Shown here one piece after another: positions 5,554 to 64,000 of a stretch of 64,000 nucleotides of DNA. The notes below the pieces were generated by a model that was given only the letters and a program-made list of their open reading frames with translations, was not told the DNA's origin and did not search any database. How positions within the stretch are numbered: position 1 is the first letter of the stretch; every line of letters begins with the position of its first letter. The translations under genes were made by a program, and so were the position numbers. Source of the DNA: an uncultured Candidatus Saccharibacteria bacterium (GTDB lineage: Bacteria; Patescibacteriota; Minisyncoccia; Minisyncoccales; 2-12-FULL-40-12); NCBI GenBank assembly GCA_964518135.1, contig CAZFEY010000001.1, positions 2,856-66,855 on the forward strand, written 5' to 3'.

Positions 5554-8500
5554 CTAAATCGCGAATCTATTCTGAATGACTCCCGATTTAACATTCATGA
5601 CTTTCGAAGTAAAGATGTGGGAATAAGAGCCGTCGTCATTTTTCTTTTCGATCTTAAGGTAATATTTGCCTGGCGGAACAAGAATATAATATCTTCCATA
5701 TTGATTAGCGACTCTTTTTACCATCTCTTTGTCAACATCGGCATTAAATATTCTTAATATCGCAAATGACAAGGGAAGTCCGGTATCTTTTTCCGATAAA
5801 GTTCCAAAGGTTCTTGTTTTGATATTTAAAGATATAAGCACGCCCAAAAGCATATACAAAAGAACCACGATCAGGTTTGCGCGCTCGGGAGCCAAAAGAA
5901 CGCTTACTATTGCCGAGGCAAAACCAACAACAAATAAAATATCTGCCAACTGCCTAAAAGTAATTTCTGTTTGAGAATAAAGTTTCATCAAATTCTTTTG
6001 CTTTTTGGCAAATTCATTCCAGTCGAACTTTTCTCTATCTAACGGAATGTCTCTCGCGACAACGTCTCCTTTTTCACCCACCTCAACTTCGCCACCAAAA
6101 TAAAGATTACTATATATTTCATCGTTGCTTCTGCCGTAAAGTGCTTTTGATGGGAATTTATAGTGGGTTTTATTGGCTACCATGGTGTATTTACCAGGTT
6201 CTGCCAAAAATCCATACCGACCATCCAAATCAGTAATCGACGTGGTTACCTCCTCGCCTTTTTCGTTCTGTAACATTACATAGGCTGGGTCTAATGGCTG
6301 TTTTGTGATTGAGTCATAAACGGTACCCCAACCTTTGCTCTTACGCTTTAATCCAAACGCAATCATAAGCGATGACAGTAATCTTAGAAGTTGCAAGCCC
6401 CAATTAGCCGGTGAAATCGGTATAAACCCAATTAATCCCAACCCACTCACAATCAATCCAGTCATTGCAATTGCCTTGGCAGTATCCTCTGCTGCGGGAC
6501 TATTTAACCAGCCACGGACAATATCAATAATACCTTTCTGCTCTTCTTCCTCTTCTGGAACTGCTGGCACGCATCTCTCCTCGGTCCATTCTTCTATGGA
6601 AATATATTCTTGTTCGATCTCACACCATTGAGTACCCGGAGGAACACATCTGTCCACCGTCCACTCTTCTTCTGGCATATATCTTTGTTCAACTTCGCAC
6701 CATCTCGCTCCGTCGGTAACACATCTCCTTTCGGTCCAATCTTGTTCTGGTATATACTGCCTTTCTTTCATGCACCACTTAAGAATAGGAGTTATACACC
6801 TTCCTTCGGTCCACTGTTCTATCGGTATGTATTGTTTTTCCGCTCCGCACCATTTGGTGCCCGGGGGAGTACAACGTTCTTCTGTCCAATCTTGCTCTGG
6901 AATAAAATGCTGTTCAAACTCACACCACTTAGCGCCTTCGGGCACGCATCTCTCCTCGGTCCATTCGTCTTGAGGTATAAACCTTTGTTCGTCTTCGCAC
7001 CATACTGTTAATGGCGGAGGGACGCATCTATCAACGCTCCATTCTTCTTCGGGTATGAATTGCTGCTCGGCTTCGCACCAAAGAGTTCCGTCAGGCGCGC
7101 ATCTTTCCTCGGTCCATTCGTCTTGAGGTATAAATTGTTGTTCTTTCTCACACCATTGATTTACCGGCCCTCCACCACCTCCAGGGACATCACACCTTGC
7201 GCTTGTCCATTCTCCTTGAGGTATAAAAGCATTTTCTTTGACGCACCAGGTCATCACCGCAGCTGGGAACCAATTAATGTTATTGCCATTATCTACAAAA
7301 TGAACTGGATCAATCGGCAGAGCCGCTTGGTTAACCGAATTCCCAACGTTCACGAAATCAACATTCCAAGCAGCAGGATTAATATTCCATTGGTCAGCTC
7401 CGGCTCCTCCTGCTCTCTCAAGGTTAATATTGTTTCCAGCCGCTCCAGCAATTTCCCAACTAGCCGGGCTTGTAATTGTTTGAGTGGAGTCTGATTGGAA
7501 AGCCAAAGTTTTGCCCGGTGTCGTGCAGCTAAAATTCCAAAAAGTAGAGTTACCACTGATGGTTGAGGTTTGGGTCGCATCATTAAAGGTAACTGTGTTA
7601 TTGCTATGAGAAAATATTCCATTCTTAGTCCAATTACTACCCAAAGTGATATTTTTACCATCGGCATTAAGATTTGCGGCGGCATCTATTGTTAGACTGC
7701 CAGTTAAAGCATTGGCTCCGGTCAGATTTCCCACCGGAACATATGTTTCAGCTCCGGAAAACTGAATTGAATTATAGGTGGTGGTTGTAACATTAATATT
7801 TCCCGCAGCATTCGTTGCTGAATACTGAACAGTGGAATTAGTTCCAGGAGTCAAAGTGCCATTAACAGTTAAAACTGTTGCTACGGCTCCGGCATTGGCA
7901 AGGTTCAATATGTACCCATTAGAGGCGAGATCCAACGTATTGTTAGCATTAACGGTCATTATGTCCGCAGTCATTGAGGAAGCCAAGGTCAGCTCATTTC
8001 CTGCTCCTCCGCCAATAACTACTGCTCCAATATTTTGCTTAACCGCTGTGGAGTCGGTGTAGTTATTGTCTTCGACTCCATCAAAAGTTAAAGTTCCTCC
8101 TTTAGTGTAGGTAGTGCCTGCGTCTAAAGTAAAGTTGCCGGCATAATTCTGGCTCAAAGCATTGGTGTCAAAAGTACCAGCTGATTGTAAAAAATTTCCA
8201 TCAACATCTAAAGCATTGTTGGTTAATTGTAGGATTCCGGCTCCGGAGTGGGTTAGATGATTGAAAAGGAATCCCGCTCCTACTCCTCCGGAGTCCAGGG
8301 CTTGGGTGCCGGCGGCAGCGCTAAAAGTAACAAGACCCTCTCTTGGAGTAAATGTTCCATTATTATCCCAATTACCGGCCAGAGTAATATTATAATCACC
8401 ACCAAAAACAGCATCTAGGGTAGCGCCGTTATCAATGGTTAAGCTTCCCGTTAAAGCATTTGCGCCAGTATGATTACCTTCTAAAATATAAGTTTCAGCG

Positions 8501-11500
8501 CCAGAAAGTTGTAAGCTACTATAGGGCGTAATGGTAACGGTTATATTTATAGCGCCATTCACTCCTGAATATTGTACCGTAGAGGTGCCAGGATTAAGAG
8601 TCCCGGTTACTCTTAGTACGTGTGCGATTTCTGCAGGGTCAGCCCAAATACCACTAGATCCGCCTGCTAAATTTAAAGTATAGCTACCTACACCTAGATT
8701 TAAGGTAGTGCTAACATCTAAGGAATTCACGGTCATCGAAGAAGCCAATGTAATTTCCTTTCCAACGCCACCCCCAATAATAACCTCTCCGATATCTTGT
8801 TTTACAGCTGTTGAGTCCGTATAAATTGCCGTATCTGTTGCTCCATCAAAAGTTAGAGTTCCGCCTTTGGTATAAGTAGTGTCTGCATCAAGAGTAAAAC
8901 TGCCAGCGTAGTTTTGGTCTAAAGCGTTAGTATTAAAGGTACCTGCCTGAAGGCGAAAATTGCCATCCACATCAAGAGGACTGTTGGCAAGAGTTAACAT
9001 CCCGCCTCCTGTATAATCTATGGTTAGATTCCAAAAAGCGCTTGCTCCAGGGTCTAGGAGTGGAAAGGGCGGAGGAGCGCCGGGATAATCAAAAACAACT
9101 GTATTGTTGCCATGGGTGAAAATAGCTGAATTTGCCCAACCGCTACCACCACCAACATACATATCCTGCCCGTTAGCATTAAATATGCCTGCCGAATTAA
9201 TAAAACCACCATCTATGTCAACCGCATTCGTAATGAGTCTCAATGTTCCATCGCCAGAGTGAGTAAGACCATTAAAAGATTTGCCAGCGCCCACTCCTCC
9301 GGAATTCAAATCTTGAGTTCCAACTCCGGCATTAAAAGTAACAGTATTAGACCTTGGGGTAAATGTTCCGGCATTAGACCAATTACCAGCCAAAGTAATG
9401 TTGTAGTTTTGACCATCAACAGCGTCTAAGGTAGCGCCACTATCAATTGTTAAACTTCCAGTCAAAGCATTGCCGCCCGTAAGATTACCTAAAAGTTCAT
9501 AGGTTTCAGCTCCAGAAAACTGCAAAGAGTTATAAGTCGTAGTAGTAACCTCGATATTGTTGCCTACGATAACTCCGGAATATTTCACCGTGGAAGTACC
9601 CGGCGTAAGAGTACCTATTACGATTAGTGAATCCCCGACCCCATCCCCATGAACAGCAGCCGTAAGAACACCTTGTAAATCTAAGGTGTAGTTATTAGAA
9701 TTTAAATCTAAAACATTGTCTATGTTGATAGTCATCGTATCCACGGTCATACTGGATAGTAAAGTAAGCTGATTGTCTGGAGGGGCGGCGGCGGCGGACA
9801 ACAACCTAACCGTCCCTATGTTTTGTTTTGTGTCATTGGAATCAGTATAGGTTATCCCGAGACCATGATTAAAGGTAACTGTTCCGCCCTTAGTGTAAGT
9901 AGTGTTGGCTAAAAGCTCAACATCGCCAGAAAAAACTTGGCTCAATCCATTAGCATCGAAAGTTCCTCCTTGAAGCGAAAAAGTCCCATCTACATCTAAT
10001 AAGTTGGTGTCAAGTTGTTTAATTCCAGCGTTGCTTAAAGTAAGGTTATAAAAACTACTATTTGGACCGTTGTCTATGGTTTGAGTTCCAGCTGCGGCGT
10101 TGAAGGTAACTGTGCCACTTCCGGGAGTAAAAACCCAATTATTATCCCAATTGCCAGCTAAAGTAATTCCGTAGTTTTGAACGACATCAGCGCTCAAAGT
10201 TGAAACATTATCTATGGTTATATTTCCGGTTAAAGCGTTGGCGCCTGTTAAATTGCCCAATAATACATAAGTCTCGGCGCCAGAAACCTGAAGAGAATTG
10301 TAGGTGGTATTGGTAACTAGCATATTGCCCCCTCCAAAAACCGCTGAATACTTCACCGTGGAGGTTCCGGGAGTAAGGGTTCCGTCAACACGCAGCGAAT
10401 CCCTCTCGGCTGGATGCCCTGGCAGGGGCACTAAAAACACATCTTTTAAATCTAAAACATAACTATTCGAACCTAAATCGAGAGTGTTGTCGGCATCAAT
10501 CAACATTGTGTCCACGGTCATATTAGACGCAAGAGTAATCTTTTTCCCTGCTCCGCCACCGATAACAACGGTCCCAATATTTTGTGTCGCGGCCGTGGAA
10601 TCGGTATAAATCGCAGTATCTGTCGCTCCATCAAAGGTTAAAGCACCTCCTTTGGTATAACCAGTACCCAAATCCAAAGTAAAGCCACCTGCGTAATTTT
10701 GGTTTAGAGCGTTAGCGTTAAAGGTTCCATCCTGGAGACGGAAGTTGCCATCTACATCGAGATTATTGGTATCGAGAGCTATACTTCCACCTGCTCCGCT
10801 AAGATTTATGGTAAGATGCCAAAAAGAACTTGAACCGTTATTTAAGGTGTATACTGCGATTTCTGTACCATTGAATTCAACTGTGCTTGAACCGGGAGTA
10901 AAGGTACCGGAATTAGACCAGTTTCCTGAAAGAGTAGCAGTATAAGTTTCAGCGTTAAAATTTGCGCCGGCCTGGATAGTAACATCGTCAGAAATTAAGT
11001 TACCGCCCGGGGTATAAGTTTTATTCGTCCAGACAATAAAATCAACTCCCGCATCTAATGTTAGATCGCTACCAGCCACCGAAAAAGGAACTGCTAGCCC
11101 GCCTTCGCCAGTAGAAAAATCTGCATTTGTTATTGGCCCCGCTGTTTCATGTCTGGCAGTAACAGTATCAAGGCTGGAAACTGTAAAATCAGCTATGTTT
11201 GTGGTAGTCGTTGCAACAGTAACTATAGCCACATCTTCGCCAGCGCCGCCCGAGTAAAAAGTAATAATATCGCCATCGCTAAAATAATGCTGCATTGTAA
11301 AGGTAATGTTGGCGCCTGCCAATATATCGGATGTTGCTGGCACCAAGCTAGTGGGTAAACCCCCATTTATCGCTATTGTCGTGTCATTTAAATTATCTCC
11401 GCTATTATTAAATACAGTAATGTCTATCTGAAAAAGCCAATTGGTATTATTGTCAGAGTTAGTTGAGGTAATAGCCGTAACGGTTCCACCATTAATACTG

Positions 11501-12726
11501 TTAGAATCTTTAACGTCTACGTATGTAACCGAGACAGATGCGGCAGCGACAACATCTACCTCCCATTGACTTCCTGGCGTAGTACTCCTTAAGACAATTT
11601 GGTTGGCGCCGGCACCTCCAGTTAAAAGAAGATTGGTAATAGTCTGGGTTGTACCATCGGTGAAGGTAATTTGTTTGGCAGCGGTTATAGAAGTAAAGTT
11701 TTCGAATGTCGTAGAGCCAGAGATTGTTGACACCTTGCCACTGTCGTTAAAAGTCACCGAAGGATTTGCTCCATTAAAAGAACCACTCGTAAAAGCCCAA
11801 CTGCCAGATAATGCTATGGTACCGCCTACATTATATGTGGCGCCATTCAAAGTAAAATTCCCTGAAATAGTTAGTACGCTGGGATCGTTGAAGATCCCGC
11901 TAGTCAAATCAACATTACCAGTAACGCTCAATCTGTTGCCGAATACTTCTAAGACATTGTAAGTTCCGCCGGATTGGGTAAAATTACCACCGACAATAAG
12001 GTTTACAGCCACACTCAATCCTCCTCCAGATAAATCAACATTGCCAGTGGTCTCTGTATTCCCAGTACTTGTAAATGTTCCTCCTGCCACACTTAACGAA
12101 CTAGCCGTGATAGCATTACCCCCATCAGAAAAAGCAGCGATGCTGTTGGCACCAGCCATCGCGAAAGCTCCCATACCCGGTATTGCCACCGTCAAAGATA
12201 TTGAGCCGTCATATCCGTCTGTGGCACCCGCGTCGCCCGTAATAGTTAATGATTCTCCAGCTGATCCCCAAGTGCCGAGATTGTCAATGGTGACATTTTT
12301 ATCATTGGTGCTGTTAAAAGTTACTGTGTCTCCAGCGGCTGGGGCGCCATCTGGCAACCAGTTAAGATCATCTGACCAGTTTTCTGTTAATCCTTCACCG
12401 TCCCAAACTTTTGCTTCGGCCTTGACTAAAAAAGGAATAGAGGAAAACAATACCAGAATCAACAAAAATAATGTTCCAAATAAAGAAAGCCAGTGGGTAA
12501 TCTGGGCGTAAGGATTCAGATGCCAACGGTAATACGCAACTGATTTTCGTAATAAGTATCTATGCAAAGGAGCCAACTGCGGAATAGTGGTTTTTTTGGC
12601 AGAGTATGGAATCAGAAAAAGCCATTCGTTGAGCTCTTGGACTTTTTTTGAACGTTCCCTTTTCTCTTTCTCCATTTTAGCGATTCGCCTTTCTTCTTTT
12701 GTTTGAAAAATCCGCCCAAAGGCCAT
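5554..12726 (-). CDS. giant (2390 aa) membrane-anchored surface protein: N-terminal signal-anchor, long parallel beta-helix/autotransporter-like repeat region, 9x 25-aa Cys-pair repeats, C-terminal TM helices with two carboxypeptidase-regulatory-like beta-sandwich domains
   Basis: Repeated 'GNLTGANALTGSLTIDN...NITLAGNW.N.GTFTP...TVTFNA..GTQ' units; tandem WCE.EQ.FIP..EWTEERC.P repeats; 'GTVYDSITKQPLDPAYVMLQNEKGEEVTTSITDLDGRYGF...GKYTMV' CarboxypepD_reg-like; several hydrophobic helices near C-terminus. Confidence 0.8.
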   Translation of the reverse strand: MAFGRIFQTKEERRIAKMEKEKRERSKKVQELNEWLFLIPYSAKKTTIPQLAPLHRYLLRKSVAYYRWHLNPYAQITHWLSLFGTLFLLILVLFSSIPFLVKAEAKVWDGEGLTENWSDDLNWLPDGAPAAGDTVTFNSTNDKNVTIDNLGTWGSAGESLTITGDAGATDGYDGSISLTVAIPGMGAFAMAGANSIAAFSDGGNAITASSLSVAGGTFTSTGNTETTGNVDLSGGGLSVAVNLIVGGNFTQSGGTYNVLEVFGNRLSVTGNVDLTSGIFNDPSVLTISGNFTLNGATYNVGGTIALSGSWAFTSGSFNGANPSVTFNDSGKVSTISGSTTFENFTSITAAKQITFTDGTTQTITNLLLTGGAGANQIVLRSTTPGSQWEVDVVAAASVSVTYVDVKDSNSINGGTVTAITSTNSDNNTNWLFQIDITVFNNSGDNLNDTTIAINGGLPTSLVPATSDILAGANITFTMQHYFSDGDIITFYSGGAGEDVAIVTVATTTTNIADFTVSSLDTVTARHETAGPITNADFSTGEGGLAVPFSVAGSDLTLDAGVDFIVWTNKTYTPGGNLISDDVTIQAGANFNAETYTATLSGNWSNSGTFTPGSSTVEFNGTEIAVYTLNNGSSSFWHLTINLSGAGGSIALDTNNLDVDGNFRLQDGTFNANALNQNYAGGFTLDLGTGYTKGGALTFDGATDTAIYTDSTAATQNIGTVVIGGGAGKKITLASNMTVDTMLIDADNTLDLGSNSYVLDLKDVFLVPLPGHPAERDSLRVDGTLTPGTSTVKYSAVFGGGNMLVTNTTYNSLQVSGAETYVLLGNLTGANALTGNITIDNVSTLSADVVQNYGITLAGNWDNNWVFTPGSGTVTFNAAAGTQTIDNGPNSSFYNLTLSNAGIKQLDTNLLDVDGTFSLQGGTFDANGLSQVFSGDVELLANTTYTKGGTVTFNHGLGITYTDSNDTKQNIGTVRLLSAAAAPPDNQLTLLSSMTVDTMTINIDNVLDLNSNNYTLDLQGVLTAAVHGDGVGDSLIVIGTLTPGTSTVKYSGVIVGNNIEVTTTTYNSLQFSGAETYELLGNLTGGNALTGSLTIDSGATLDAVDGQNYNITLAGNWSNAGTFTPRSNTVTFNAGVGTQDLNSGGVGAGKSFNGLTHSGDGTLRLITNAVDIDGGFINSAGIFNANGQDMYVGGGSGWANSAIFTHGNNTVVFDYPGAPPPFPLLDPGASAFWNLTIDYTGGGMLTLANSPLDVDGNFRLQAGTFNTNALDQNYAGSFTLDADTTYTKGGTLTFDGATDTAIYTDSTAVKQDIGEVIIGGGVGKEITLASSMTVNSLDVSTTLNLGVGSYTLNLAGGSSGIWADPAEIAHVLRVTGTLNPGTSTVQYSGVNGAINITVTITPYSSLQLSGAETYILEGNHTGANALTGSLTIDNGATLDAVFGGDYNITLAGNWDNNGTFTPREGLVTFSAAAGTQALDSGGVGAGFLFNHLTHSGAGILQLTNNALDVDGNFLQSAGTFDTNALSQNYAGNFTLDAGTTYTKGGTLTFDGVEDNNYTDSTAVKQNIGAVVIGGGAGNELTLASSMTADIMTVNANNTLDLASNGYILNLANAGAVATVLTVNGTLTPGTNSTVQYSATNAAGNINVTTTTYNSIQFSGAETYVPVGNLTGANALTGSLTIDAAANLNADGKNITLGSNWTKNGIFSHSNNTVTFNDATQTSTISGNSTFWNFSCTTPGKTLAFQSDSTQTITSPASWEIAGAAGNNINLERAGGAGADQWNINPAAWNVDFVNVGNSVNQAALPIDPVHFVDNGNNINWFPAAVMTWCVKENAFIPQGEWTSARCDVPGGGGGPVNQWCEKEQQFIPQDEWTEERCAPDGTLWCEAEQQFIPEEEWSVDRCVPPPLTVWCEDEQRFIPQDEWTEERCVPEGAKWCEFEQHFIPEQDWTEERCTPPGTKWCGAEKQYIPIEQWTEGRCITPILKWCMKERQYIPEQDWTERRCVTDGARWCEVEQRYMPEEEWTVDRCVPPGTQWCEIEQEYISIEEWTEERCVPAVPEEEEEQKGIIDIVRGWLNSPAAEDTAKAIAMTGLIVSGLGLIGFIPISPANWGLQLLRLLSSLMIAFGLKRKSKGWGTVYDSITKQPLDPAYVMLQNEKGEEVTTSITDLDGRYGFLAEPGKYTMVANKTHYKFPSKALYGRSNDEIYSNLYFGGEVEVGEKGDVVARDIPLDREKFDWNEFAKKQKNLMKLYSQTEITFRQLADILFVVGFASAIVSVLLAPERANLIVVLLYMLLGVLISLNIKTRTFGTLSEKDTGLPLSFAILRIFNADVDKEMVKRVANQYGRYYILVPPGKYYLKIEKKNDDGSYSHIFTSKVMNVKSGVIQNRFAI
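6540..7290. repeat. about 9 diverged tandem about 75-bp repeats (encode 25-aa WCE...ERCVP units on minus strand)
   Basis: Periodic recurrence in protein and in spurious plus-strand ORFs (repeated '...LSSVHSS...'). Confidence 0.7.
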
Positions 12727-14398: not shown

Positions 14399-14647
14399 TT
14401 ATAAATTTTTTGAAATTAATCCTTCGATCGCACGTCTCTTTTTCCAAGATTTAATCTGCAACTCTCTTTCTTTGGCATCTTTTAATAATCTATACTCTTC
14501 TTTATGCACAATTTCCCAGGGAATATATCTTTTCGTAGATTTAACTAGGCCTTTGTTATGTAAGCTAATTCTTATTTCCAAATCTTCACAACTACCGATA
14601 TAAAATGAATTATTTTTCTCAGATTTTAAAATGTATGTATAAAACAT
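14399..14647 (-). CDS. small GIY-YIG nuclease-domain protein (82 aa)
   Basis: 'MFYTYILKSEKNNSFYIGSCEDLEIRISLHNKG' GIY-YIG motif; paralog of 80..352. Confidence 0.75.
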   Translation of the reverse strand: MFYTYILKSEKNNSFYIGSCEDLEIRISLHNKGLVKSTKRYIPWEIVHKEEYRLLKDAKERELQIKSWKKRRAIEGLISKNL

Positions 14648-16781: not shown

Positions 16782-16950
16782 CCCCGTGGCAAGGCGCCTC
16801 GCTTCGGACGAGAAAATTGAGGGTTCCCTGCCCGCCATATTTGCCTCCATAGTGAAACGGATATCATACATGGCTTCGGACCATGAGTTCCGGGTTCGAA
16901 TCCTGGTGGAGGTACGGCAAGGCAGGCGGGGAGTCCTTTTGGGGGTACGA
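16782..16950 (+). other. degenerate tRNA-Arg-like outer element (acceptor GCCCCCG/TGGGGGT, anticodon-loop CTTCGGA) interrupted by intact tRNA-Arg
   Basis: Outer sequence has anticodon stem-loop CTCG-CTTCGGA-CGAG identical in loop to inner tRNA; halves 'GGGTTCCCTGCCCGCCAT' and 'AGGCAGGCGGG' are contiguous in the 14716-14812 copy. Confidence 0.3.
16843..16914 (+). tRNA. tRNA-Arg (anticodon TCG), no encoded CCA
   Basis: GCCTCCA-TA-GTGA..TCAT-A-CATGG-CTTCGGA-CCATG-AGTT-CCGGG-TTCGAAT-CCTGG-TGGAGGT-A; G1:U72 wobble. Confidence 0.8.
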
Positions 16951-17035
16951 TTATTTATTTTTGAGCGTAGCGAGAAAACATTTATTTTTATCGTAAAATG
17001 ATATATAATCCGAGAAGAATAATCCATATTGCAAG

Positions 17036-17455
17036 ATGAAAAAGATAATCCTAAATATAATTTTATTGTCTTTTATAATCGGCCTACCCTACATTGCTAA
17101 CGCACAACCAGTTGGCTTAGTGCCTTGCGGTAACATTGGCGAACCACCCTGTCAACTCTGCCACATATTTATTCTCTTTAATAACATTATCTCATTCTTG
17201 CTTGTTCCTGGTAATCCCTTTGGGGGATTCCCTGTGGTACTTGCTATCGCTGGACTAATGATATTATGGTCAGGATTCTTATATATAATGAGCTTTGGGG
17301 ACCCTAAGAACCTAATCAAATCAAGAGAAATACTAAAAGCAACGGGCCTTGGATTGTTAATAGTTTATGGCGCTTGGGCTGCTGTTAACACATTGTCATG
17401 GTTCGGCATTATTCCGAATAACTGGTTTACGATTAACTGCCCTATTATTCCTTAA
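17036..17455 (+). CDS. secreted VirB2/TrbC-like pilin-like protein (stand-alone, 139 aa)
   Basis: Sec signal peptide, then hydrophobic helices separated by short polar loop 'SFGDPKNLIKSREILKATG'; paralogous to N-termini of 27978.. and 33753.. proteins. Confidence 0.45.
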   Translation: MKKIILNIILLSFIIGLPYIANAQPVGLVPCGNIGEPPCQLCHIFILFNNIISFLLVPGNPFGGFPVVLAIAGLMILWSGFLYIMSFGDPKNLIKSREILKATGLGLLIVYGAWAAVNTLSWFGIIPNNWFTINCPIIP

Positions 17456-17496: not shown

Positions 17497-17570
17497 TGCC
17501 CCCATAGCTTAATTGGTAAAGCAGGAACCTCTTAAGTTCAAGAGTCCAGGTTCGAGCCCTGGTGGGGGCA
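17497..17570 (+). tRNA. tRNA-Lys (anticodon CTT), no encoded CCA
   Basis: GCCCCCA-TA-GCTT-AATTGGTA-AAGC-A-GGAAC-CTCTTAA-GTTCA-AGAGT-CCAGG-TTCGAGC-CCTGG-TGGGGGC-A. Confidence 0.8.
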
Positions 17571-17655
17571 TAGAGCGTACGGGGCAAACCTAGGCGCAAT
17601 ACAATAATCAAGTCGAGATAATTAAGGTATTACTGTTAAACAACATACATTATAT

Positions 17656-17922
17656 ATGCTAAGCAACGAGGAAAAAGGAAAGATAATATCAAAACACAAA
17701 ATCCACGAGAAAGACACTGGATCTGCCGAGGTGCAAATCGCTTTACTTTCCGAGGAGATAGATAAGCTTCTTTTGCATCTTAAAAGCCACGCAAAAGATT
17801 TTCATTCAAAGCGGGGTCTTTTGAAAATGGTATCAAGAAGAAGGAAGCTTTTGAGCGTCTTGAAAGAAGAAGACGAAAAAAGATATAATAGTATTATAAA
17901 AAAAGTTGGTCTTAAAAAATAG
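17656..17922 (+). CDS. rpsO: 30S ribosomal protein S15
   Basis: '[50 protein letters not shown]' S15 signature. Confidence 0.9.
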
Positions 17923-20736: not shown

Positions 20737-23616
20737 ATGGTACAAGGCCAACAACAAACGGATAACCAAGATATTCTTAAGAAGGCCGAGATAAAAACAA
20801 TGCAGGCTGATATTTTGGCTGCCCAAAAAATATCTGACAAGAACGACCTAGCTACTCGAGAAAGAGAAATGGCAAGAAAAATAACAGAACAGAAAAGGGC
20901 CGAGGAAGAACGTAAAAAGATTGCCGCTCAAACCATAAAGAAAACTTTACCGACGCAAACTAAAAAAATTGACGAAAAAAAAGTGATCAATGATGGAGAA
21001 GAAGCTATTAAAAAATTTGAGGCGGATAGGAGGAAAGAAGAATCAGATGTTATAGCGAAAACAAACGTAAAAATCCAAGAAGAACAAAGAAAAAAAGAAA
21101 TAGCCGAACGGAAGGCCGCTGAAGAAAGGCGTCTCGAAGAAGAAAAAAAACAGAGAAATGCAGAAAAAGAAAAATTAAAACAAATAGAAGAAGCCCGAAA
21201 AAAAGAGATCGTAGCAATACGACAAAGAGAAGAAGCGATACTCGCGGCCAAAGAAGCAAGACGCATCAGGGAAAGGGAAATACTGCAATTAGAAGAAGAA
21301 AAAATATTATTAGAAAAAGGGCTTCAAGATATTTTGAGCAGAAGAGTTCCGCTAGAAACAGAAATAAACCAGCTTGCCAAGCGAGAATCTCAATTGCAGG
21401 AAAATTTGAATGAAGTCTCGAAAAGAGAAGATGAGGTTGAAAGAGAAGTAAAAACAATTGAAGCTAAGGAAAAATCGGCCGACACAGAAGAGAAGAAGAA
21501 ACTTGAACAACAAAGATGGGAAATTGAAGAGAAGAGAAGGAGAGTAGAGAAAGAAAGGTGGGAATGGGAGGCAGAAATCGGTAAAGTAAAGGACCAAAAA
21601 AGAGAGGTTAGTTTAAGGTATAATAGACTTTTGACTAACGAAGAGGAAATCCTAGAGAGAAAAAGGGCAATCGCTGACAAACAAGAAGAAATTAAAATAG
21701 AAAATGAGAAAATAGAATTAGAAAAAGAATTACAAAGGTTAAAAGAGAAAAAATCTCCCCTAGAGATAGAGATTAATGCCATTTTGGAGAGAGAATCTCA
21801 ACTCCAAGCGAAACTAGACAGCGTTTCGAGTAAAGAGAATGACATTGAAAGAGAAATAAGCTCAATTGAAGACAGAGAAAAATCTACTGGCGTGACCGAG
21901 GGGAAAAAAGAGCTTGAACAACAAAGATGGGAGATTGAAGAGAAAAGAAGGGGAGTGGAAAAAGAGAGGTGGGAATGGGAGGCAGAAATCGGAAAAGTAA
22001 AGGACGACCTAAAAAGAATAGAAAATGAGTATCAAAAAATTCTCTTAAGAGAAAAGGAATTATTATTAAAACTACACCCAGAACAAATAACTAATTTATC
22101 TAACCGATTGGAAGAGGAAGAGAAAGCTACAATACCTACAAAAACAACACCTCCCTTACAAAAAAGAGAAAGGGCAGATGTTAAAATTTCCGAAAACAAA
22201 CCCGTAAAACCAGAACCCCAGAACAAGGAAGAAAACCTTGCCGACTCGACTATTTCTCAAAAGACAGCCGCGCCAGAAAAAACGCAACTGGACAACCATC
22301 AAGAGAAACAACATCTAGACGAGACAATAAATAGACAAATGGAAGTGCTAAAAGAGATCGAACGTCTTAAGGCAGAAACAGAAAAAGAAAAACAACAGAC
22401 AAGAAACGAAGGAGAGGTAGCGCAAACACAGGTAAATATAACCGTTGAATCAGCCCACGAGCAAGAGTCTGGGCAGACAACAACCATCCAATCCCAACCA
22501 GAACCGGCACTAGATCAGGAAGAGATAACCACGCATCAAGTACCACCCCAACCAATACCCATTAAACCGCAGAAATTCTGGATGAAAGAAGAGGCTAAAG
22601 CATTTGAAACGCAAACCAGAGATCCTCAAAAAGAAAGCGAGATTAAAAAGCGACTTGATGAAATCCAACAACAAGAAGAAATAGAAAGAAAAGAATTTTT
22701 AGAAAGGATTCAAGGAAGTGAATCGAAAAAATCGACCATTGGAAGAATTAATAAAGAAAATATTCCTATCAAGCCTCAACCAGAAACACCTGAAATTATT
22801 ACATCTATAGCGCCTCGGCCCTCTGCTTTTGGTAAATTCTGGTCAAGAATTTTAGCAACAATGATAGTTGTCGCCATCTTCGCTGGTGTGTTTTGGTTAA
22901 TTTACTGGACATTCTTTATCCGAAAAGCGCAAATCAAAACAACCTGGTGTGAAAACGAAAAAGTCCAGATACCGCAATCTGAATTCTCTCCAGAAAGATG
23001 CGTTCCGCCACCCATCGTGATTCCTGAAATTCGCGTTCCGCCAGATTTAATTAGTATTGCAACCAGAAAGGAAATTGTTGTTCCGGAAAAAGGAGATCCA
23101 TTAAAGGAGCTGGCAAGATTTTTAGAGGAAAATGGCGAAGAACTAGAACAAAATAAGCCTACCAGGATAGTAATAAAGAGCCTCGATAAAAAGGAAGTGC
23201 TTGGTTTTGAGGATTTTTTCAATCTTTTTAAGGCAACTGTGCCAGATGGTTTTTATTCTAAAATCAACAAAGACTTTAATCTTCTTATCTACCCACAGAA
23301 AGAAGGACGAAGATGGGGCATAATAAGCCAAATTACAACCCAAGAAGGCGTTGATGTTGTTGGCGAAACAGTAACTATGCTTCGGCTTTGGGAAGACAAA
23401 ATGGATCAAAATCTCCAAACTCTTTTTGTATTTTTTGGAAAAACAGAACCAGCCATAAATGATTTCTTCACCAGAGTGCCGTATGGAAACATAAACATAC
23501 GTTGCCAGACTTTCAGCAAAGAGGATTTTGGCGATTGCTACGCTATAAAAGGAAACAGTTTCGTTTTAACCACCTCCTTAGAAAGTATAAAAAAAATATT
23601 AGACGAAATAAAATAA
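20737..23616 (+). CDS. K/E-rich coiled-coil membrane protein (959 aa) with internal about 136-aa duplication, one TM helix, and C-terminal domain bearing the WCENE...ERCVPPP Cys-pair motif
   Basis: Heptad-like charged repeats; 'QQRWEIEEKRR.VEKERWEWEAEIGKVKD' present twice; TM 'ILATMIVVAIFAGVFWLIYWTFFI' followed by motif shared with giant protein. Confidence 0.65.
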   Translation: MVQGQQQTDNQDILKKAEIKTMQADILAAQKISDKNDLATREREMARKITEQKRAEEERKKIAAQTIKKTLPTQTKKIDEKKVINDGEEAIKKFEADRRKEESDVIAKTNVKIQEEQRKKEIAERKAAEERRLEEEKKQRNAEKEKLKQIEEARKKEIVAIRQREEAILAAKEARRIREREILQLEEEKILLEKGLQDILSRRVPLETEINQLAKRESQLQENLNEVSKREDEVEREVKTIEAKEKSADTEEKKKLEQQRWEIEEKRRRVEKERWEWEAEIGKVKDQKREVSLRYNRLLTNEEEILERKRAIADKQEEIKIENEKIELEKELQRLKEKKSPLEIEINAILERESQLQAKLDSVSSKENDIEREISSIEDREKSTGVTEGKKELEQQRWEIEEKRRGVEKERWEWEAEIGKVKDDLKRIENEYQKILLREKELLLKLHPEQITNLSNRLEEEEKATIPTKTTPPLQKRERADVKISENKPVKPEPQNKEENLADSTISQKTAAPEKTQLDNHQEKQHLDETINRQMEVLKEIERLKAETEKEKQQTRNEGEVAQTQVNITVESAHEQESGQTTTIQSQPEPALDQEEITTHQVPPQPIPIKPQKFWMKEEAKAFETQTRDPQKESEIKKRLDEIQQQEEIERKEFLERIQGSESKKSTIGRINKENIPIKPQPETPEIITSIAPRPSAFGKFWSRILATMIVVAIFAGVFWLIYWTFFIRKAQIKTTWCENEKVQIPQSEFSPERCVPPPIVIPEIRVPPDLISIATRKEIVVPEKGDPLKELARFLEENGEELEQNKPTRIVIKSLDKKEVLGFEDFFNLFKATVPDGFYSKINKDFNLLIYPQKEGRRWGIISQITTQEGVDVVGETVTMLRLWEDKMDQNLQTLFVFFGKTEPAINDFFTRVPYGNINIRCQTFSKEDFGDCYAIKGNSFVLTTSLESIKKILDEIK

Positions 23617-25662: not shown

Positions 25663-26790
25663 TTACCTAGCGAATGGGTTTGTCCCTCCTCTCACTTCAA
25701 AGTGCAAGTGACAACCAGTTGAAATTCCTGCACCACTCATTCCTGGCTTACCGCCCGTTAAGGCTATAACCTGACCTTGCGAAACTTGCTCGCCCGGACC
25801 CACCATGCTTGTAGCTAAGTGACCATAAAAAGTAACTAGTCCATTGGGATGTAAAATCATAATGTAATTTCCTGCTCCACCGTTCCAGCCATATCTTACT
25901 CTTTGTACTTGTCCTCCGGCCGCTGCATAGATTGGACTATTGCATTTACTGGCAAAATCAACGGCGTTGTGCCAGTGTAAACCTTGAGTTAAAGAGCAAG
26001 ACCCAACAACAGGACATATAAAATAGCTTGAACCGACCGGTATTTGATTCGATGGAACTATTGGCTTGGCAGCTACTGATTGTGACGGCATTTTTCCGCC
26101 CGGCACAACCAAGATGTCTCCTATATAAATATCTTCTTCTTCGGCTAACTCGTTAAAAGCAATAATATCATTCGTCTCTACTTTATAGGTTTTAGCAATA
26201 GCGGCCAAAGTATCGCCCTTTTTAACATAATGTGCCACGCCAGAAATAGGCAAGATGATCAATGACTGGCCCGGCTTTATCTTTGCGCCCCTGCCTAGCT
26301 CATTAGCCCAAAGCAATGTTTCTAAAGTGATATCGAACTTTTCGGCTATACTATTCAAGCTATCTCCATCTTCAACAATATACTCAACAATTTCTGCTCT
26401 GTCGCTCGAAAAATCTTCTTCTTCTCCGATTATCGCACCAAGCGTCTGGCCCGTTGTCATTACCGGAGGAGTAAAAGCCACCAAGCTGTTATTTTGCACA
26501 AATAGCGTATCTGGAGTTTCTTTAACTGCATCGGTCGTCGCCAGACCAACAAAAAGATCGGTTTTATTAACCGAACTTTTTATATCTTCATCCAATAATA
26601 TATTTAACAAATCAACGTTTAATAACGATGCTTGTAAATTATCCTTGACCAATAAGGCGCTTGTTTTCCGCGCAGAAAAAACATTGAAAACAGTAGCGAA
26701 TAAAAGCAAAATTACTACCACCAGCCATAAATGGGAAAAAGGGTCTTTGGCAGATCCTTTTCTCTTAAGCAAACTGATTGTTTTTCTCAT
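25663..26790 (-). CDS. LysM-domain M23 family peptidoglycan endopeptidase
   Basis: Two LysM repeats ('GDSLNSIAEKFDITLETLLWANEL', 'GDTLAAIAKTYKVETNDIIAFNEL'); M23 core 'HNAVDFA...GNYIMILHPNGLVTFYGHL...GCHLHFEV'; start taken at MRKTISLL signal anchor. Confidence 0.85.
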   Translation of the reverse strand: MRKTISLLKRKGSAKDPFSHLWLVVVILLLFATVFNVFSARKTSALLVKDNLQASLLNVDLLNILLDEDIKSSVNKTDLFVGLATTDAVKETPDTLFVQNNSLVAFTPPVMTTGQTLGAIIGEEEDFSSDRAEIVEYIVEDGDSLNSIAEKFDITLETLLWANELGRGAKIKPGQSLIILPISGVAHYVKKGDTLAAIAKTYKVETNDIIAFNELAEEEDIYIGDILVVPGGKMPSQSVAAKPIVPSNQIPVGSSYFICPVVGSCSLTQGLHWHNAVDFASKCNSPIYAAAGGQVQRVRYGWNGGAGNYIMILHPNGLVTFYGHLATSMVGPGEQVSQGQVIALTGGKPGMSGAGISTGCHLHFEVRGGTNPFAR

Positions 26791-26935
26791 TAAAGAGGCT
26801 AAAGCCTCAAAAGAGATTTGTTGTCTAGGAATATTTCTTAAAAATCTTTCAAAAAAATCTTTCCCGACTAGCCTAAGTGGCACGACGCACCACCGGCAAA
26901 CTATGTTTATTAGTTTATCACTACCAGGCATTAAG

Positions 26936-27060
26936 TCAACCCCGTTAGAAACCATCTGTGAAAATTTGCTTACTAAGCATAGAAGCCGTGAGGCGACTCC
27001 GTCTCATAGCTCTCTGTAAAATCGATGGCCATCGCGGGCTTCTAACGGGGTCAACTCCGA
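26936..27060. promoter_or_regulatory. structured element: perfect 11-bp inverted repeat (ccccgttagaa / ttctaacgggg) closing about 100 nt containing 12-bp palindrome cgatggccatcg; candidate riboswitch/leader or small RNA
   Basis: Arms at 26940-26950 and 27040-27050; internal hairpins (gcttagtaagc); lies in 5' leader region of M23 peptidase (minus) and upstream of rsmA (plus). Confidence 0.35.
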
Positions 27061-27977: not shown

Positions 27978-30533
27978 ATGGCTAATAAAAAAATAGTTCT
28001 AGCAATGCTGCTCGCCGTAGTTATTGTTCCTGTATTCTTTTCTTTTGCTTGGGCACAGAACGATAGAGAGCTAGAAGTTGACTACCCGGACATTGGCGGA
28101 ATAGCAGGACCAACCAAAGTTACCGTAGGGCTTCCAGAATACATTAGATATATTTTTAATTTCGTTGTTGGGTTTGCTGGTGTTATTTTATTATACGCCC
28201 TGATAAGGGGAGGCCTTTCTTATTTAGCCTCGGGGGCAAATGTGGCAAAATTAAAAACGGCAAGAGAGCAACTCGGCTCTGTCTTTTTGGGAATAGTAAT
28301 CCTTTTGTCATCTTACATCATCTTAACTACCATTAATCCTCAATTGGCTATTTTAAACCTTCCAATTTTTAGCAATCTGAATTTGGGAGGAGGAACTCCT
28401 GCAACATTCACCACAGACGAAGCGTCTATAATCTATTATGAGATTCCGATTGGACAAATGATAAAAAATGGGGTCTGGAAAACGAGCGCGATAGAAGCAA
28501 TGACCAACATAGATGAAACGGGAATATTAGACGAATTTGAAAAATTTATTACAAGCGAAATTACCACAAGAGATGGAATTTCTATTAAAAGAATCTCTGA
28601 TTTAAATAAATACCTTAAAACATTAGCCGAGAGTTGTAGCTGTAGTGAGATGTCTCCGATCTGTACCAAGCCTAAAAACTTTACCATTGATGTTGGCTGT
28701 ACCGGAGATCCTTGTGAAAAAAATAGAGACAAAATAGAAGACGTCCTAGACATCAATAGCAAGCTAATAGAAAATCCTGACGAGCCAATAAATAGCCTTA
28801 AAGAATTCAATGACAAAATAAAGGATAATCCTGATGAGCCAATAAATAGCCTTAAAGAATTCCTAGAAGAACAAGATAAATTTTTTAACAATCTTGATGT
28901 CCAAGAAAAATTTTCTGAGTGCTTAGAGACTGGGTTTTTAATAACACAGGGTGAATATTTACAATCCGTACGCTACTACGAAGATCAAGGAATTAAAACA
29001 GAGGTCGTCCAGAGCTATATGCCTTCTAAAGGCGACCCATTTACATTTTATTGCACCGTTGGCGGCACAATGATGGATATACCGATAAAGCAAGACGAAC
29101 TTTCCGTACCTATATCGGGTGGAACTGGGTTTGACTTACCGCCATCCGCAACAGAAGAGCCTGAACCATTGAGCTGTCCCGGCGTGGTGCCTATTGGCGA
29201 AATAATAGACGTTGTTGGATCTGCTTCTGTGATATCGAATGAAAACTTAACAGGGCTTACGGAGTTAATCGACGAACTAACAATCGAGATGAGAGATATG
29301 GCCGATAGAATATCGGAGTGCAACGAAGACAGTTGCAAATCACCACAGACTGGCAAGAATGCTGCTAATTGTAAGTGCTTTCCTAATCCTTGTTATATAC
29401 CTCCCGGCGTCCCCTGTCCTCCCGGTTTGGGATTTTGCGTTGGACAGATGTGCATGACCCCTTGTCTCAAGCCATCTCCTGGTAGTTGTGAGGCTAAAAA
29501 TTTTGATGCCCCAAACTATGGCTCACCATGCCCTTTGGGAAGATTGGCTGAATCTTCTGAACCAGGAGATCCCCCAGACATAAAGTCAATGGAAAAAACC
29601 ATTAAAGACATTAAGAGAACTGAAAATACAATTCTTGAAGCTATCGAAGGGCTAAGGCAAGGCTTTTCCAATACGCCCTACGTTGTTGAAACTCCGCAAC
29701 AAATCCCAATAGACTTAGTAGAGGGAGTCAAATGGGTTATGGGATTTTGTAGAAATGAAGATATTGTCAATCCAACCTGGGCAATGGTAAATTGCGGCTT
29801 GGCTACCGGCAATATAGGACCTGATGGCAATGAAATTGCTGGATGCGATCTGCGAAGTTTCTTTTGCTGTACTGGCGATAGGGCAGCAGCAGAAAACGCA
29901 AGACTATCATATTCTAGCGGTGGAGGTGGAGGCGGGGGTGGACAATATGCCGCAACCTATTACACCCCATACGTTGGTCCACCAGTAGCGACTGATGGCG
30001 CATGCAACCAAAGAATCATTACGCAAGCATCAAAATATGACGGAATACTTTATAGTCAAGGATGGAATAAGTCAACATATCCTGCTGAATGCCGAACTCG
30101 AAGTAGGGGCCATTGTTACACGGCTGCGGAAAATAAAGGACCAGAAGGAGTACAATGCCTAGATTGTTCTGGTTTCGCTAGTCGCGTTTATAGAGATCTT
30201 GGTATTCTCCCGCTAGCACCAACTGACCCGAGCGCAGGATGGTGTCATCATGTAGCAGCAATAATAGCCAATAGGTCATATTTCTACGAAATATCAGCGC
30301 AAGATATATTACCAGGAGATTTAGTTACGAATGGCTCTGGTTCTGAAGGAGACCCTATGCATGTTGTTATTTATGAAAGCGGTGATGCCTCAAGAAGATT
30401 TTGGACGTGGCAAGAAGGAGGCGGAGGCGGTGGTGGCCTTCCCGGCTGTAATGGTAAAGTATGTAGAACAGAAAGGACCGCGCGAAGCAATCAGCGATAC
30501 TGGAGAAGAGTAAATGAATGCGATACGTTCTAA
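27978..30533 (+). CDS. secreted fusion protein: VirB2/TrbC-like two-helix pilin-like N-domain + Cys-rich ectodomain + C-terminal NlpC/P60 peptidoglycan hydrolase domain flanked by Gly8 runs
   Basis: Signal peptide; 'YIRYIFNFVVGFAGVILLY...ASGANVAKLKTAREQLGSVFLGIVILLSSYI..TINPQL'; NlpC/P60 Cys 'CLDCSGFASRVY' and His 'GDLV...HVVIY'; GGGGGGGG at aa about 650 and about 815. Confidence 0.6.
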   Translation: MANKKIVLAMLLAVVIVPVFFSFAWAQNDRELEVDYPDIGGIAGPTKVTVGLPEYIRYIFNFVVGFAGVILLYALIRGGLSYLASGANVAKLKTAREQLGSVFLGIVILLSSYIILTTINPQLAILNLPIFSNLNLGGGTPATFTTDEASIIYYEIPIGQMIKNGVWKTSAIEAMTNIDETGILDEFEKFITSEITTRDGISIKRISDLNKYLKTLAESCSCSEMSPICTKPKNFTIDVGCTGDPCEKNRDKIEDVLDINSKLIENPDEPINSLKEFNDKIKDNPDEPINSLKEFLEEQDKFFNNLDVQEKFSECLETGFLITQGEYLQSVRYYEDQGIKTEVVQSYMPSKGDPFTFYCTVGGTMMDIPIKQDELSVPISGGTGFDLPPSATEEPEPLSCPGVVPIGEIIDVVGSASVISNENLTGLTELIDELTIEMRDMADRISECNEDSCKSPQTGKNAANCKCFPNPCYIPPGVPCPPGLGFCVGQMCMTPCLKPSPGSCEAKNFDAPNYGSPCPLGRLAESSEPGDPPDIKSMEKTIKDIKRTENTILEAIEGLRQGFSNTPYVVETPQQIPIDLVEGVKWVMGFCRNEDIVNPTWAMVNCGLATGNIGPDGNEIAGCDLRSFFCCTGDRAAAENARLSYSSGGGGGGGGQYAATYYTPYVGPPVATDGACNQRIITQASKYDGILYSQGWNKSTYPAECRTRSRGHCYTAAENKGPEGVQCLDCSGFASRVYRDLGILPLAPTDPSAGWCHHVAAIIANRSYFYEISAQDILPGDLVTNGSGSEGDPMHVVIYESGDASRRFWTWQEGGGGGGGLPGCNGKVCRTERTARSNQRYWRRVNECDTF
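28773..28863 (+). repeat. two 36-bp near-identical direct repeats (aatcctga[c/t]gagccaataaatagccttaaagaattc) 55 bp apart, in-frame (ENPDEPINSLKEF x2)
   Basis: Direct reading of sequence; 1 mismatch. Confidence 0.8.
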
Positions 30534-33500: not shown

Positions 33501-33766
33501 AACTACCAACCGTTCCTCTCTCTGGTCTTAAATATGAAAAAAGTGTACCAATTGAGCTCCCCGGATTCCAATATCCTTCTCCACAAATTAATTTCGGGAG
33601 TCCTTTACCAAATGCAACTGCCTGTGTTAGCCAACCGCCGACTGGGAACGCTTGCGGCGCAGCTCCTGGCGACATGCAAACCGACCTTACTGGTTCTGAT
33701 GGCATACAAGAGCTCAGCCAAAAACTTAACGATGCTTCTAAAAAGATAAGGGATGTATTACAATAA
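30593..33766 (+). CDS. large (1057 aa) N-terminally membrane-anchored Cys-rich extracellular protein
   Basis: Single N-terminal TM; shares 'ECSC...C...GC...PC' module with 27978.. protein; many Pro/Cys; no catalytic motif recognised. Confidence 0.55.
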   Translation: MNKKSIYNVFKKTSGLTIPLFALILATIAILLVATKSAAQIPSLFLPNFPSRLMYLSDAIANTSQELISPNQDMIDLVNECSCEFSQSQCKQIITNGQPSGCVTIGAIGKPCSLVSPGEETEPTIRSLQRKSRNLALDLSYLRKLLIKEKEAGLERQLETLRKDPSAGIDDAQDLRDAINIILGTSADYADGALSKVITKAEANLERPKQCSTNACTPHCGPGDSFSLSEYMCLPALTFELGEVKPTVINFHAGIEIEDWELGKIEITNVKLNLPESIDIPELPGLKMPSFSISVPEIKIDCPTKKQEISFQTPQPSLPKTPTMKLSCPTYNTTASYQYPSDLQPGSEKYREFEWFLETFSWLSGICMDAVWGDGDLPDSQKMQYPDKFNQSLTTCFDPFNVANKLIQECNEQYANYHPSNPPSGPPPVYPACEYWVNKQPAEFGSITEEHCFKFFEGFADPSGTQGWEDIDGNPATNDPKTFDPGTKDKIYDYLEQKYGITIDDEPQDQCRDKLDPLPTLIDSCNKLRELHPQKQAIEFPDQCKILPIFYNLPDYIPPHQIASPEVLELFAQSQLLSGQQMNDLPSKSISGCPSIGAPSIPKIPLSKYSIIIPDIKLPTFKLGPFFRIKLPSLIFEDLIFEDIELCNLDDCQFKFPNLNFEAPTLTIPQIDVPSIKLESFNVPGIPNDIGKGIEISISPMEFQPFDFDFSQLINLNSLVSPEFQTPDISLPKPKLTFGFEGLDIDFTSLLSGLFDFNLPPNPGLACLPEFWNIDGIPIAFDFPDYIFSWPAFPDIPEIPGCADAKKFCKDINGSIQKITEQAGEIQEVVNGTIQTEIQGVLNMFKNEIENQLTGAIESKLNDIATEIKKEIYNWIQSNAPPSTSLPSAPIPGVFPVADGLSCQGLPPLTIDLKDILGDLYINTIELEDYLPPGLNLEKISIPWPDELKNLDLSTINNPLCSDCKGLSYELPTVPLSGLKYEKSVPIELPGFQYPSPQINFGSPLPNATACVSQPPTGNACGAAPGDMQTDLTGSDGIQELSQKLNDASKKIRDVLQ

Positions 33767-33776
33767 CATAACATCA

Positions 33777-40272: not shown

Positions 40273-40279
40273 TCCAATA

Positions 40280-63810: not shown

Positions 63811-63835
63811 AACTATTTATTTAAAAAATTTTTAT

Positions 63836-63960
63836 AGTGGAGGCGGAGGGGTTGAACCCTCGTCCGAAAATTAATTCAGAAATAAATCTACAAACTTAGC
63901 CAGGTTTGTTTTGGAACGAAAAGTATAAAATCTGGCAAAACCCTTTCGTTCTTTGCCTTT
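63836..63960 (-). promoter_or_regulatory. structured 5' leader of infC-rpmI-rplT operon (8-bp hairpin GAACGAAA/TTTCGTTC; tRNA-like T-arm + ...CCTCCA 3' end); possible L20-type autoregulatory leader
   Basis: RC contains GAGGG-TTCAAC-CCCTC T-arm-like hairpin adjacent to CGCCTCCA; no matching 5' acceptor strand, so not a complete tRNA. Confidence 0.3.
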
Positions 63961-64000
63961 GTTTTTGATAGCTCTCCAGGCACTAGAGTTATCTATCTCG

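Follow-up and report, generated by a model that had tools for sequence, protein, structure and literature searches.

Three copies of a VirB2/TrbC-type pilin module, one stand-alone and two fused to large ectodomains, at and near a Candidatus Saccharibacteria type IV secretion locus

In this work we analysed a stretch of 64,000 nucleotides from an uncultured Candidatus Saccharibacteria bacterium (GenBank assembly GCA_964518135.1, contig CAZFEY010000001.1, positions 2,856 to 66,855 of the forward strand), hereafter called the window, and focused on a gene at 17036-17455 that encodes a small pilin of the VirB2/TrbC type. We found that the window contains exactly three copies of the same pilin module: this stand-alone protein of 139 amino acids (aa), and the N-terminal domains of two large proteins of 851 and 570 aa at the head of a type IV secretion system (T4SS) operon. 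We consider it likely that the three represent one polymerising pilin and two extracellular T4SS accessory proteins, which are anchored by the pilin module and may be docked at the VirB6/VirB3/VirB4 platform. An original prediction made on the same DNA had proposed three paralogous two-helix domains of the VirB2/TrbC type, one as a 139-aa open reading frame (ORF) between two tRNA genes and two at the N-termini of an 851-aa protein (from 27978) and a 563-aa protein (from 33777). All three genes are present as described, the small one on the same strand as both tRNAs; the 563-aa protein corresponds to the 570-aa ORF read from its second ATG. The features needed for the main argument are as follows.

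17036-17455, + strand: stand-alone VirB2/TrbC-type pilin (T4SS_pilin family), 139 aa, ATG start; based on ORF, Pfam, relatives and an AlphaFold2 (AF2) model
16843-16915, + strand: tRNA-Arg(TCG), upstream neighbour of the pilin gene; context only, outside the T4SS
17497-17571, + strand: tRNA-Lys(CTT), downstream neighbour of the pilin gene, context only; followed by rpsO at 17656-17922
27978-30533, + strand: 851-aa T4SS ectoprotein with signal peptide, pilin-type hairpin, Cys-rich conserved core of ~500 aa and predicted C-terminal NlpC/P60 peptidase
28065-28382, + strand: pilin-type N-domain of the 851-aa protein, residues 30-135 (LEVDYP...TINPQL)
30156-30377, + strand: NlpC/P60 module of the 851-aa protein, residues 727-800 (Pfam, E 2e-4)
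33753-35465, + strand: 570-aa T4SS ectoprotein (563 aa from the second ATG at 33777) with signal peptide, small Cys-rich segment, pilin-type hairpin and beta-rich ectodomain
33984-34316, + strand: pilin-type N-domain of the 570-aa protein, residues 78-188

Similarity, family and architecture of the pilin module

The two fused N-domains share 44% identity over 105 aa (E 2e-23), and the stand-alone protein matches the N-domain of the 851-aa protein at E 3e-4; its pairwise comparison with the N-domain of the 570-aa protein gave nothing significant. Profile-profile comparison of the stand-alone family with the fused N-domains by hhalign reached a probability of 91% with 3 against 4 sequences, 96.6% with 112 against 4, and 98.0% (E 2.4e-13, 66 columns) with 112 against 151. 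In addition, a hidden Markov model (HMM) of each subfamily was run against the complete set of 625 six-frame ORFs in the window. The fused-type profile retrieved the stand-alone ORF at E 1.9e-4, with the next window match at E 0.21, and the stand-alone profile retrieved the 851-aa (E 5.9e-5) and 570-aa (E 0.024) proteins, with the next match at E 0.17. Because these window-wide searches pick only the three proteins, the count of three is established and their resemblance goes beyond generic hydrophobicity; the multi-transmembrane VirB6-like, YidC and Vut_1 proteins of the window obtained no score with the pilin-module profiles. The proposed three-way paralogy is thus borne out, and the outcome named in advance as its refutation, a similarity of generic hydrophobicity only, is not what we observed.

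Single-sequence scores against the Pfam family PF18895 (T4SS_pilin) were 21.2 bits for the 139-aa protein, 14.7 bits for the 851-aa protein and 12.2 bits for the 570-aa protein, each in the right region of the model, and none of the three reaches the gathering score of 26.6 bits alone. At the level of families the assignment is clearer. We found 364 stand-alone relatives, and most of those listed are 130-190 aa long and match PF18895; PF04956 (TrbC/VirB2) is matched by several in addition, and the source annotation of some reads 'pilin' or 'VirB2 component'. Among 112 stand-alone relatives, PF18895 was matched at E<=1e-3 in 92 (best E 5e-14) and PF04956 in 36, and among the fused-type relatives PF18895 was matched at the same threshold in 86 of 96 (best E 3e-71). 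A relative with 60% identity to the 139-aa protein (P0003) carries a precomputed PF18895 match. Judged transitively from these relatives, membership in PF18895 appears firm at the family level for all three modules.

As an independent test set for VirB2/TrbC we used eight annotated genes from plasmids of the mating-pair formation type MPF_T. The stand-alone family aligned to them with a probability of 94.4% (E 8.8e-8, 60 columns, N-terminal helix motif included), and together with the PF18895 matches in all three proteins this supports the predicted VirB2/TrbC-like nature. The alignment to VirB2/TrbC pilins, which had been suggested as a check, therefore succeeded for the stand-alone family but not directly for the fused N-domains, whose profile reached a probability of only 0.7-1.9% against proteobacterial VirB2 in hhalign, with both 4- and 151-sequence alignments. 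Since the direct alignment fails, their link to VirB2 is transitive and runs via the stand-alone family (98%). NCBIfam gave no match for the three pilin-module proteins. Profile searches of PDB sequences with the fused N-domain, the 570-aa family and the 851-aa family returned generic transmembrane hairpins, such as a sensory rhodopsin transducer, or nothing. Fold searches with a helical hairpin are non-specific, and the fold score against the archaeal Ced/Ted conjugative pilins (PDB 8dfu) lay inside the background of generic helical bundles.

Such results might suggest that the three N-domains are alike by hydrophobic composition alone and unrelated to pilins: the single-sequence Pfam scores stay under the cut-off, the PDB-sequence searches see generic hairpins, and proteobacterial VirB2 cannot be aligned with the fused profile. 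We regard this as barely credible. The cross-profile searches of the window, the hhalign values of 98% between the subfamilies and 94% between the stand-alone family and VirB2, the PF18895 counts and the consistent linkage of the genes to the T4SS operon largely refute it.

With 100% identity, the 139-aa protein matches a hypothetical protein of Parcubacteria bacterium GW2011_GWC1_38_6 (US98_C0018G0002), which places the window on a chromosome of the Patescibacteria, and there among the Parcubacteria. The 139-aa protein is composed of a signal peptide (residues 1-23, ANA|Q), a helix (42-56) and a transmembrane hairpin (67-85/90-122). The AF2 model contains helices at 2-20, 42-56, 67-85 and 90-122, of which three follow the signal peptide. 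A hydropathy scan placed two transmembrane segments past the signal in each of the three pilin-module proteins, and the signal-peptidase sites ANA|Q, AWA|Q and AVA|A were read by eye. The original prediction had quoted a polar loop for each copy and an NPQL motif for both fusions; the loops were found as written, and the motif reads TINPQL in both fusions. Its description of two helices joined by a polar loop needs correction: the modelled 139-aa protein has three helices past the signal peptide, and the turn of its hairpin comprises only about FGDP; the remainder of the quoted loop is the start of the last helix.

The 139-aa pilin contains four Cys residues (C31, C39, C42 and C135). Across the alignment of 112 stand-alone sequences, three Cys near the mature N-terminus are invariant, and a fourth, located 4 residues before the C-terminus, is nearly so. 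The fused modules are without this quartet, which is typical of the stand-alone pilins. Disulfides could tie together the two tails, both predicted to lie outside, in loose analogy to the head-to-tail cyclisation of the T-pilin and TrbC.

The two fusion proteins and the T4SS operon

The original prediction that the module is fused to large C-terminal domains was correct, and one of these domains is a predicted enzyme. The whole 851-aa protein contains 33 Cys. The first ~640 residues are conserved throughout the 851-type family, with many invariant Cys. The C-terminal NlpC/P60 module (PF00877) scored 21.8 bits (E 2e-4) and just missed the cut-off of 23; its LDCSGF and HVVIY motifs are visible by eye, and the module lies above the cut-off in the orthologues P0028 (31.1 bits), P0020 (27.4 bits) and P0066 (30.8 bits). 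The C-terminal module is exchanged within the family: NlpC/P60 in the 851-aa protein and these three orthologues is replaced by Peptidase_M15_4 in P0022 and by Peptidase_C39_2 in P0051 and P0023, and SLT, C70 and SLT_3 domains also occur among relatives. Judging from these domains, the 851-aa family is a predicted wall-opening component of the T4SS with the role of VirB1. We also observed a near-perfect tandem duplication in the 851-aa protein (ENPDEPINSLKEFNDKIKD / NPDEPINSLKEFLEEQDK, window 28755-28865) and two poly-Gly runs, one of 8 Gly (~29937-29960) before the NlpC/P60 module and one of 7 Gly (~30429-30449) after it.

The beta-rich ectodomain of the 570-aa protein gave fold matches of the betagamma-crystallin-like kind. 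This protein has 15 Cys, and invariant Cys columns are found in both fusion families. With its beta-rich domains of putative crystallin-like fold, the 570-aa family is probably structural or adhesive.

To learn how widespread the fusions are, we performed an exhaustive profile search with the fused N-domain, which returned 34,385 representative clusters at E<=1e-3; under the stricter limit of E<=1e-30 there were 174. The best 149 representative relatives have a median length of 488 aa, and 6 of them are under 200 aa; this list is biased toward the fused subtype, from which the profile was built. In these 149 the module lies at about residues 30-130, and the NPxL motif follows the second helix in 136. 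Single-pass phmmer matched the C-terminal part of the 851-aa protein in 23 representatives and that of the 570-aa protein in 27, and with jackhmmer the matches rose to 47/149 and 76/149, respectively. A scan of genome contigs with a shallow alignment found 4 Saccharibacteria loci only, and a word-indexed homologue search with the short fused N-domain found two fragments only. The fusions are two conserved full-length families present in many representative clusters, so that the architecture is not the unusual arrangement it had been taken for.

Some relatives (P0021, P0026, P0027 and others) carry 2-6 pilin modules per polypeptide. One of them, P0026 (locus L020, 1777-3435), has six matched stretches, and its gene is part of an array that contains four small pilin genes besides. 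This suggests that the multi-module relatives are pilin polyproteins, or that they correspond to the published pilin arrays with the members covalently joined. The same chains are relevant to the idea that the fused proteins are precursors, from which cleavage near NPxL would free a pilin and a secreted ectodomain. Each module in the chains starts with an LEVxYP-like motif and ends with NPxL, a motif so regularly placed behind the second helix as noted above, and TrbC/VirB2 pilins are known to undergo C-terminal processing. However, no protease or cleavage chemistry is known for the NPxL motif, whose place is that expected of a helix cap at the surface of the membrane. At the corresponding alignment position the stand-alone family shows a similar VNTL with nothing to release, and we saw no gene for a dedicated peptidase in the operon. 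We consider such processing improbable.

Both fused genes belong to the T4SS operon. On the + strand from 27978, the gene of the 851-aa protein comes first, then that of a Cys-rich protein of 1057 aa, that of the 570-aa protein, and those of a polytopic protein of 527 aa and a protein of 156 aa; these are followed by an SPFH pair on the opposite strand and by PrgI, a TrsD/TraC-like protein, the VirB4 ATPase and a 132-aa membrane protein. Downstream of the T4SS genes are jag/yidC, dnaA and dnaN, with dnaA 2.4 kb beyond virB4. The further T4SS features are listed below.

30593-33766, + strand: 1057-aa Cys-rich protein with N-terminal membrane anchor, 30 Cys
35487-37070, + strand: polytopic VirB6/TrbL-like membrane protein, 527 aa (weak NCBIfam CD3337/EF1877 match)
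39206-39622, + strand: PrgI (VirB3-like; PF12666, E 9e-9)
39628-40272, + strand: TrsD/TraC-like protein, equivalent of the VirB4 N-terminal domain
40265-42067, + strand: VirB4-type ATPase (PF19044 E 8e-28, AAA_10, DUF87)

The order ksgA, 851-type, ~1000-aa protein, 570-type, VirB6-like recurs in four other loci from metagenome-assembled genomes (L005, L016, L018 and L019), and the 851-type orthologues that come after ksgA in L005, L016 and L018 are 750-990 aa long. The 1057-aa protein matched no Pfam or NCBIfam family. Its counterparts of 1018 aa (L005), 975 aa (L016) and 1126 aa (L019) always lie between both pilin fusions, and it is a conserved uncharacterised component of the T4SS operon. 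The syntenic L016 orthologue of the 527-aa protein matches PF19590 (TrbL_3). Published T4SSs of Patescibacteria are of the MPF_FATA-like type, located near dnaA, without relaxase, and unexpectedly equipped with VirB2-like pilins (PMC10633639, PMC12102498, PMC12857230). The window contains the VirB4, TrsD and PrgI/VirB3 genes that define this type, with VirB6 nearby and dnaA near, and its T4SS agrees with the published, monoderm-type system characteristic of the phylum. The scan of ORFs along the window, made without MOBscan or CONJScan profiles, revealed no family of relaxases or type IV coupling proteins (T4CP).

Several side observations concern this operon. VirB4 is apparently split: the TrsD/TraC-like gene runs 8 nt into the ATPase gene, whose start codon is TTG, and the same arrangement is found in L016. 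In the middle of the cluster, at 37635-38974 (- strand), are an SPFH/Band_7 gene and a gene for a small transmembrane protein with a highly charged tail, and L016 has a Band_7 gene at the equivalent place. Just upstream of the operon, a wall hydrolase gene with LysM and Peptidase_M23 domains (25663-26955, - strand) is divergent from ksgA, an arrangement also seen in L005, L016 and L018. Since a 2025 survey noted M23/LysM domains in VirB1-like proteins (PMC12102498), this LysM/M23 gene upstream of ksgA may belong to the T4SS too.

Genomic position of the stand-alone gene

Between the stand-alone gene and the T4SS operon, which lies downstream, there are ~10.5 kb, and the distance to virB4 is ~23 kb. 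Its orthologues, 41-50% identical, lie directly upstream of rpsO-NYN-pnp in three other genomes (L005, L006 and L007), as the gene does here. In L005 only the M23/LysM gene and ksgA stand between the stand-alone pilin gene and the first fused gene, and because of this near-adjacency the ~10.5-kb separation in the window is most simply read as a rearrangement. The position of the gene is inherited synteny, and the tRNAs are neighbours, not insertion marks.

The original prediction had instead read the setting in a tRNA/GIY-YIG cluster as a sign of mobility or duplication. The tRNA genes on both flanks and the GIY-YIG ORF are real, but the latter lies 2.4 kb upstream, beyond the gene of the CCA-adding enzyme. 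If the gene were a mobile copy or a recent duplicate inserted at a tRNA/GIY-YIG hotspot, this would fit with these tRNA genes, with the GIY-YIG gene at 2.4 kb and with the apparent tendency of small GIY-YIG genes to shift in these genomes. Against it stand the intervening CCA-adding enzyme gene and the slot of the orthologues (CCA-adding enzyme or M23, pilin, rpsO, NYN, pnp), which is kept in all three genomes named above. The stand-alone gene is also only distantly related to the fused copies, and therefore it is no recent duplicate. We consider a mobile origin very unlikely. The GIY-YIG gene itself (14399-14647, - strand, 82 aa, PF01541 E 2e-14) lies between tRNA-Ala and tRNA-Pro. In L016 a 95-aa GIY-YIG gene (16933-17220) is inserted between prgI and trsD, so that small genes of this kind apparently change their place from genome to genome.

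A promoter and terminator scan around the 139-aa gene gave background level only. The Rfam scan of the window found no RNA genes besides the tRNAs and the end of a tmRNA gene, whose 3' part (63835-64000, - strand, 60.5 bits) is cut by the window end. After pnp, a gene at 20737-23616 (+ strand) encodes a 959-aa protein without a family match; its syntenic counterparts are 1079 aa (L005) and 734 aa (L006) long. Behind it come genes for a DksA/TraR zinc-finger protein and a ComM/Mg-chelatase-like protein. An ORF of 2390 aa (5554-12726, - strand) gave faint domain matches only.

Proposed function and relation to known systems

In the reading that we favour, the 139-aa protein would be exported by the Sec pathway, lose its signal peptide and insert into the membrane as a helical hairpin. 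Going by the established topology of VirB2 and the positive charges in the turn, both ends of the hairpin would lie outside the cell and the short basic turn would point toward the cytoplasm. Since the hairpin ends are outside, the large domains of the fusions would be extracellular, a placement that fits their richness in Cys (33 and 15 Cys). The stand-alone pilin would be the likeliest polymerising subunit of a pilus or of a channel lining. In the 851-aa and 570-aa proteins, the pilin module may serve as a docking piece beyond a mere anchor, and would place both ectoproteins at the VirB6/VirB3/VirB4 platform, where the pilin is handled. Once docked, the 851-aa protein would bring a wall-opening enzyme in the VirB1 role, and the 570-aa protein a structural or adhesive one.

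Some of our results weigh against this reading. Besides the PF18895 scores below the gathering threshold, the failure of the fused N-domains to align directly with VirB2, the non-specific fold searches and the narrowly missed NlpC/P60 cut-off, all given above, the stand-alone pilin is assigned to the T4SS by family membership and the adjacency in L005, across a gap of ~10.5 kb. In addition, reviews treat a pilus for the T4SS of the ultrasmall bacteria of the Candidate Phyla Radiation (CPR) as a possibility only, and none has yet been observed (PMC12857230).

The last point bears equally on a different arrangement, in which the fused proteins are minor pilins that co-polymerise at the tip or sparsely along the shaft of a pilus and display a hydrolase and an adhesin-like domain to the host. 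The fused proteins share the pilin module of the stand-alone subunit, and their genes head the T4SS operon. In the F- and T-pilus structures the termini of VirB2-type hairpins face outward, so a C-terminal extension would be exposed. Exchangeable hydrolase modules are what is expected of a host-facing tool, and type IV pilus tip minor pilins (CofB/TcpB) and VirB5 offer an analogy. However, extensions of 380-720 aa on a subunit of ~100 aa cannot pack at every filament position. The fused modules also lack the Cys quartet of the stand-alone pilins and have their own conserved flanking motifs (LEVxYP, NPxL), which suggest a diverged role. Because of the long extensions and the loss of the Cys quartet, a role as general filament subunit is unlikely, and the decorated pilus as a whole appears possible but doubtful to us. 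Its boldest form, in which the fusions are true pilus components and the tip of a small-pilin filament carries a peptidoglycan hydrolase and a crystallin-like adhesin to bind the host wall and breach it locally, is in our view decidedly unlikely. If true, a hydrolase-tipped pilus of CPR epibionts would resemble a phage tail lysin placed on a conjugative-type pilus, and the exchangeable module (NlpC/P60, M15, C39-like, SLT) would track the wall chemistry of the host.

Our preferred reading, one pilin with two docked accessory proteins, can be compared with several known systems. The VirB2-like pilins of Patescibacteria T4SSs (PF18895; Wang et al. 2023, PMC10633639; Quinonero-Coronel et al. 2025, PMC12102498) belong to the same protein family as the modules here, and their systems are likewise chromosomal, MPF_FATA-like and near dnaA, with PrgI, TrsD, VirB4, VirB6 and several divergent pilin paralogues per genome. 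In contrast to the published small pilins in tandem arrays of 2-11 genes, the window has one small pilin off the operon and two fused modules in proteins of 570 and 851 aa. With the MPF_T VirB2/TrbC pilins (PF04956; Agrobacterium T-pilin, RP4 TrbC) the stand-alone pilin shares the signal peptide, the NNI..F helix motif, two hydrophobic helices and a short basic turn. It differs from them in its monoderm host and in a turn region ~7 residues longer, and the quartet of three invariant Cys and one near-invariant Cys in the stand-alone CPR family is absent from MPF_T VirB2.

The hydrolases with the VirB1 role in Gram-positive conjugation (PrgK, TraG of pIP501, CwlT, TcpG and CD419/Orf14-type NlpC/P60 proteins) are also encoded in T4SS operons and membrane-tethered with the catalytic module outside, and the NlpC/P60 catalytic type that occurs among them is predicted for the 851-aa protein. 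Their tether is a single signal-anchor, whereas here it is a hairpin of the pilin family; unlike them, the 851-aa protein has a Cys-rich core of ~500 aa before the enzyme, and the enzyme is swapped between orthologues. The tip or initiator minor pilins CofB/TcpB of type IV pili, with their large C-terminal domains, and VirB5 at T-pilus tips are alike in concept, in that a pilin-type module bears a bulky domain of another kind at the filament tip. This is an analogy only; their protein families and assembly machines are unrelated to those of the fusions.

The CPR T4SS and the presence of multiple VirB2-like paralogues have been published, as has the stand-alone pilin family, of which the gene at 17036-17455 is an ordinary member. 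The fusion architecture is implicit in domain databases; we found no paper that mentions fusions of the pilin module to large ectodomains or hydrolases, and the 2025 survey lists PF18895 matches as 'VirB2' with no lengths given (PMC12102498). As a consequence for annotation, HMM-based counts of 'VirB2 pilins' in CPR genomes mix small polymerising pilins with large multidomain proteins.

In Southlakia epibionticum, VirB2-like pilins are essential for epibiotic growth (PMC10633639, PMC12102498, PMC12857230). No T4SS other than that of the CPR has been shown to be essential to the growth of its owner, which takes place on a host bacterium. The two conserved ectoproteins at the head of the operon are candidates for those components of the system that make contact with a cell wall, either the epibiont's own or that of its host.

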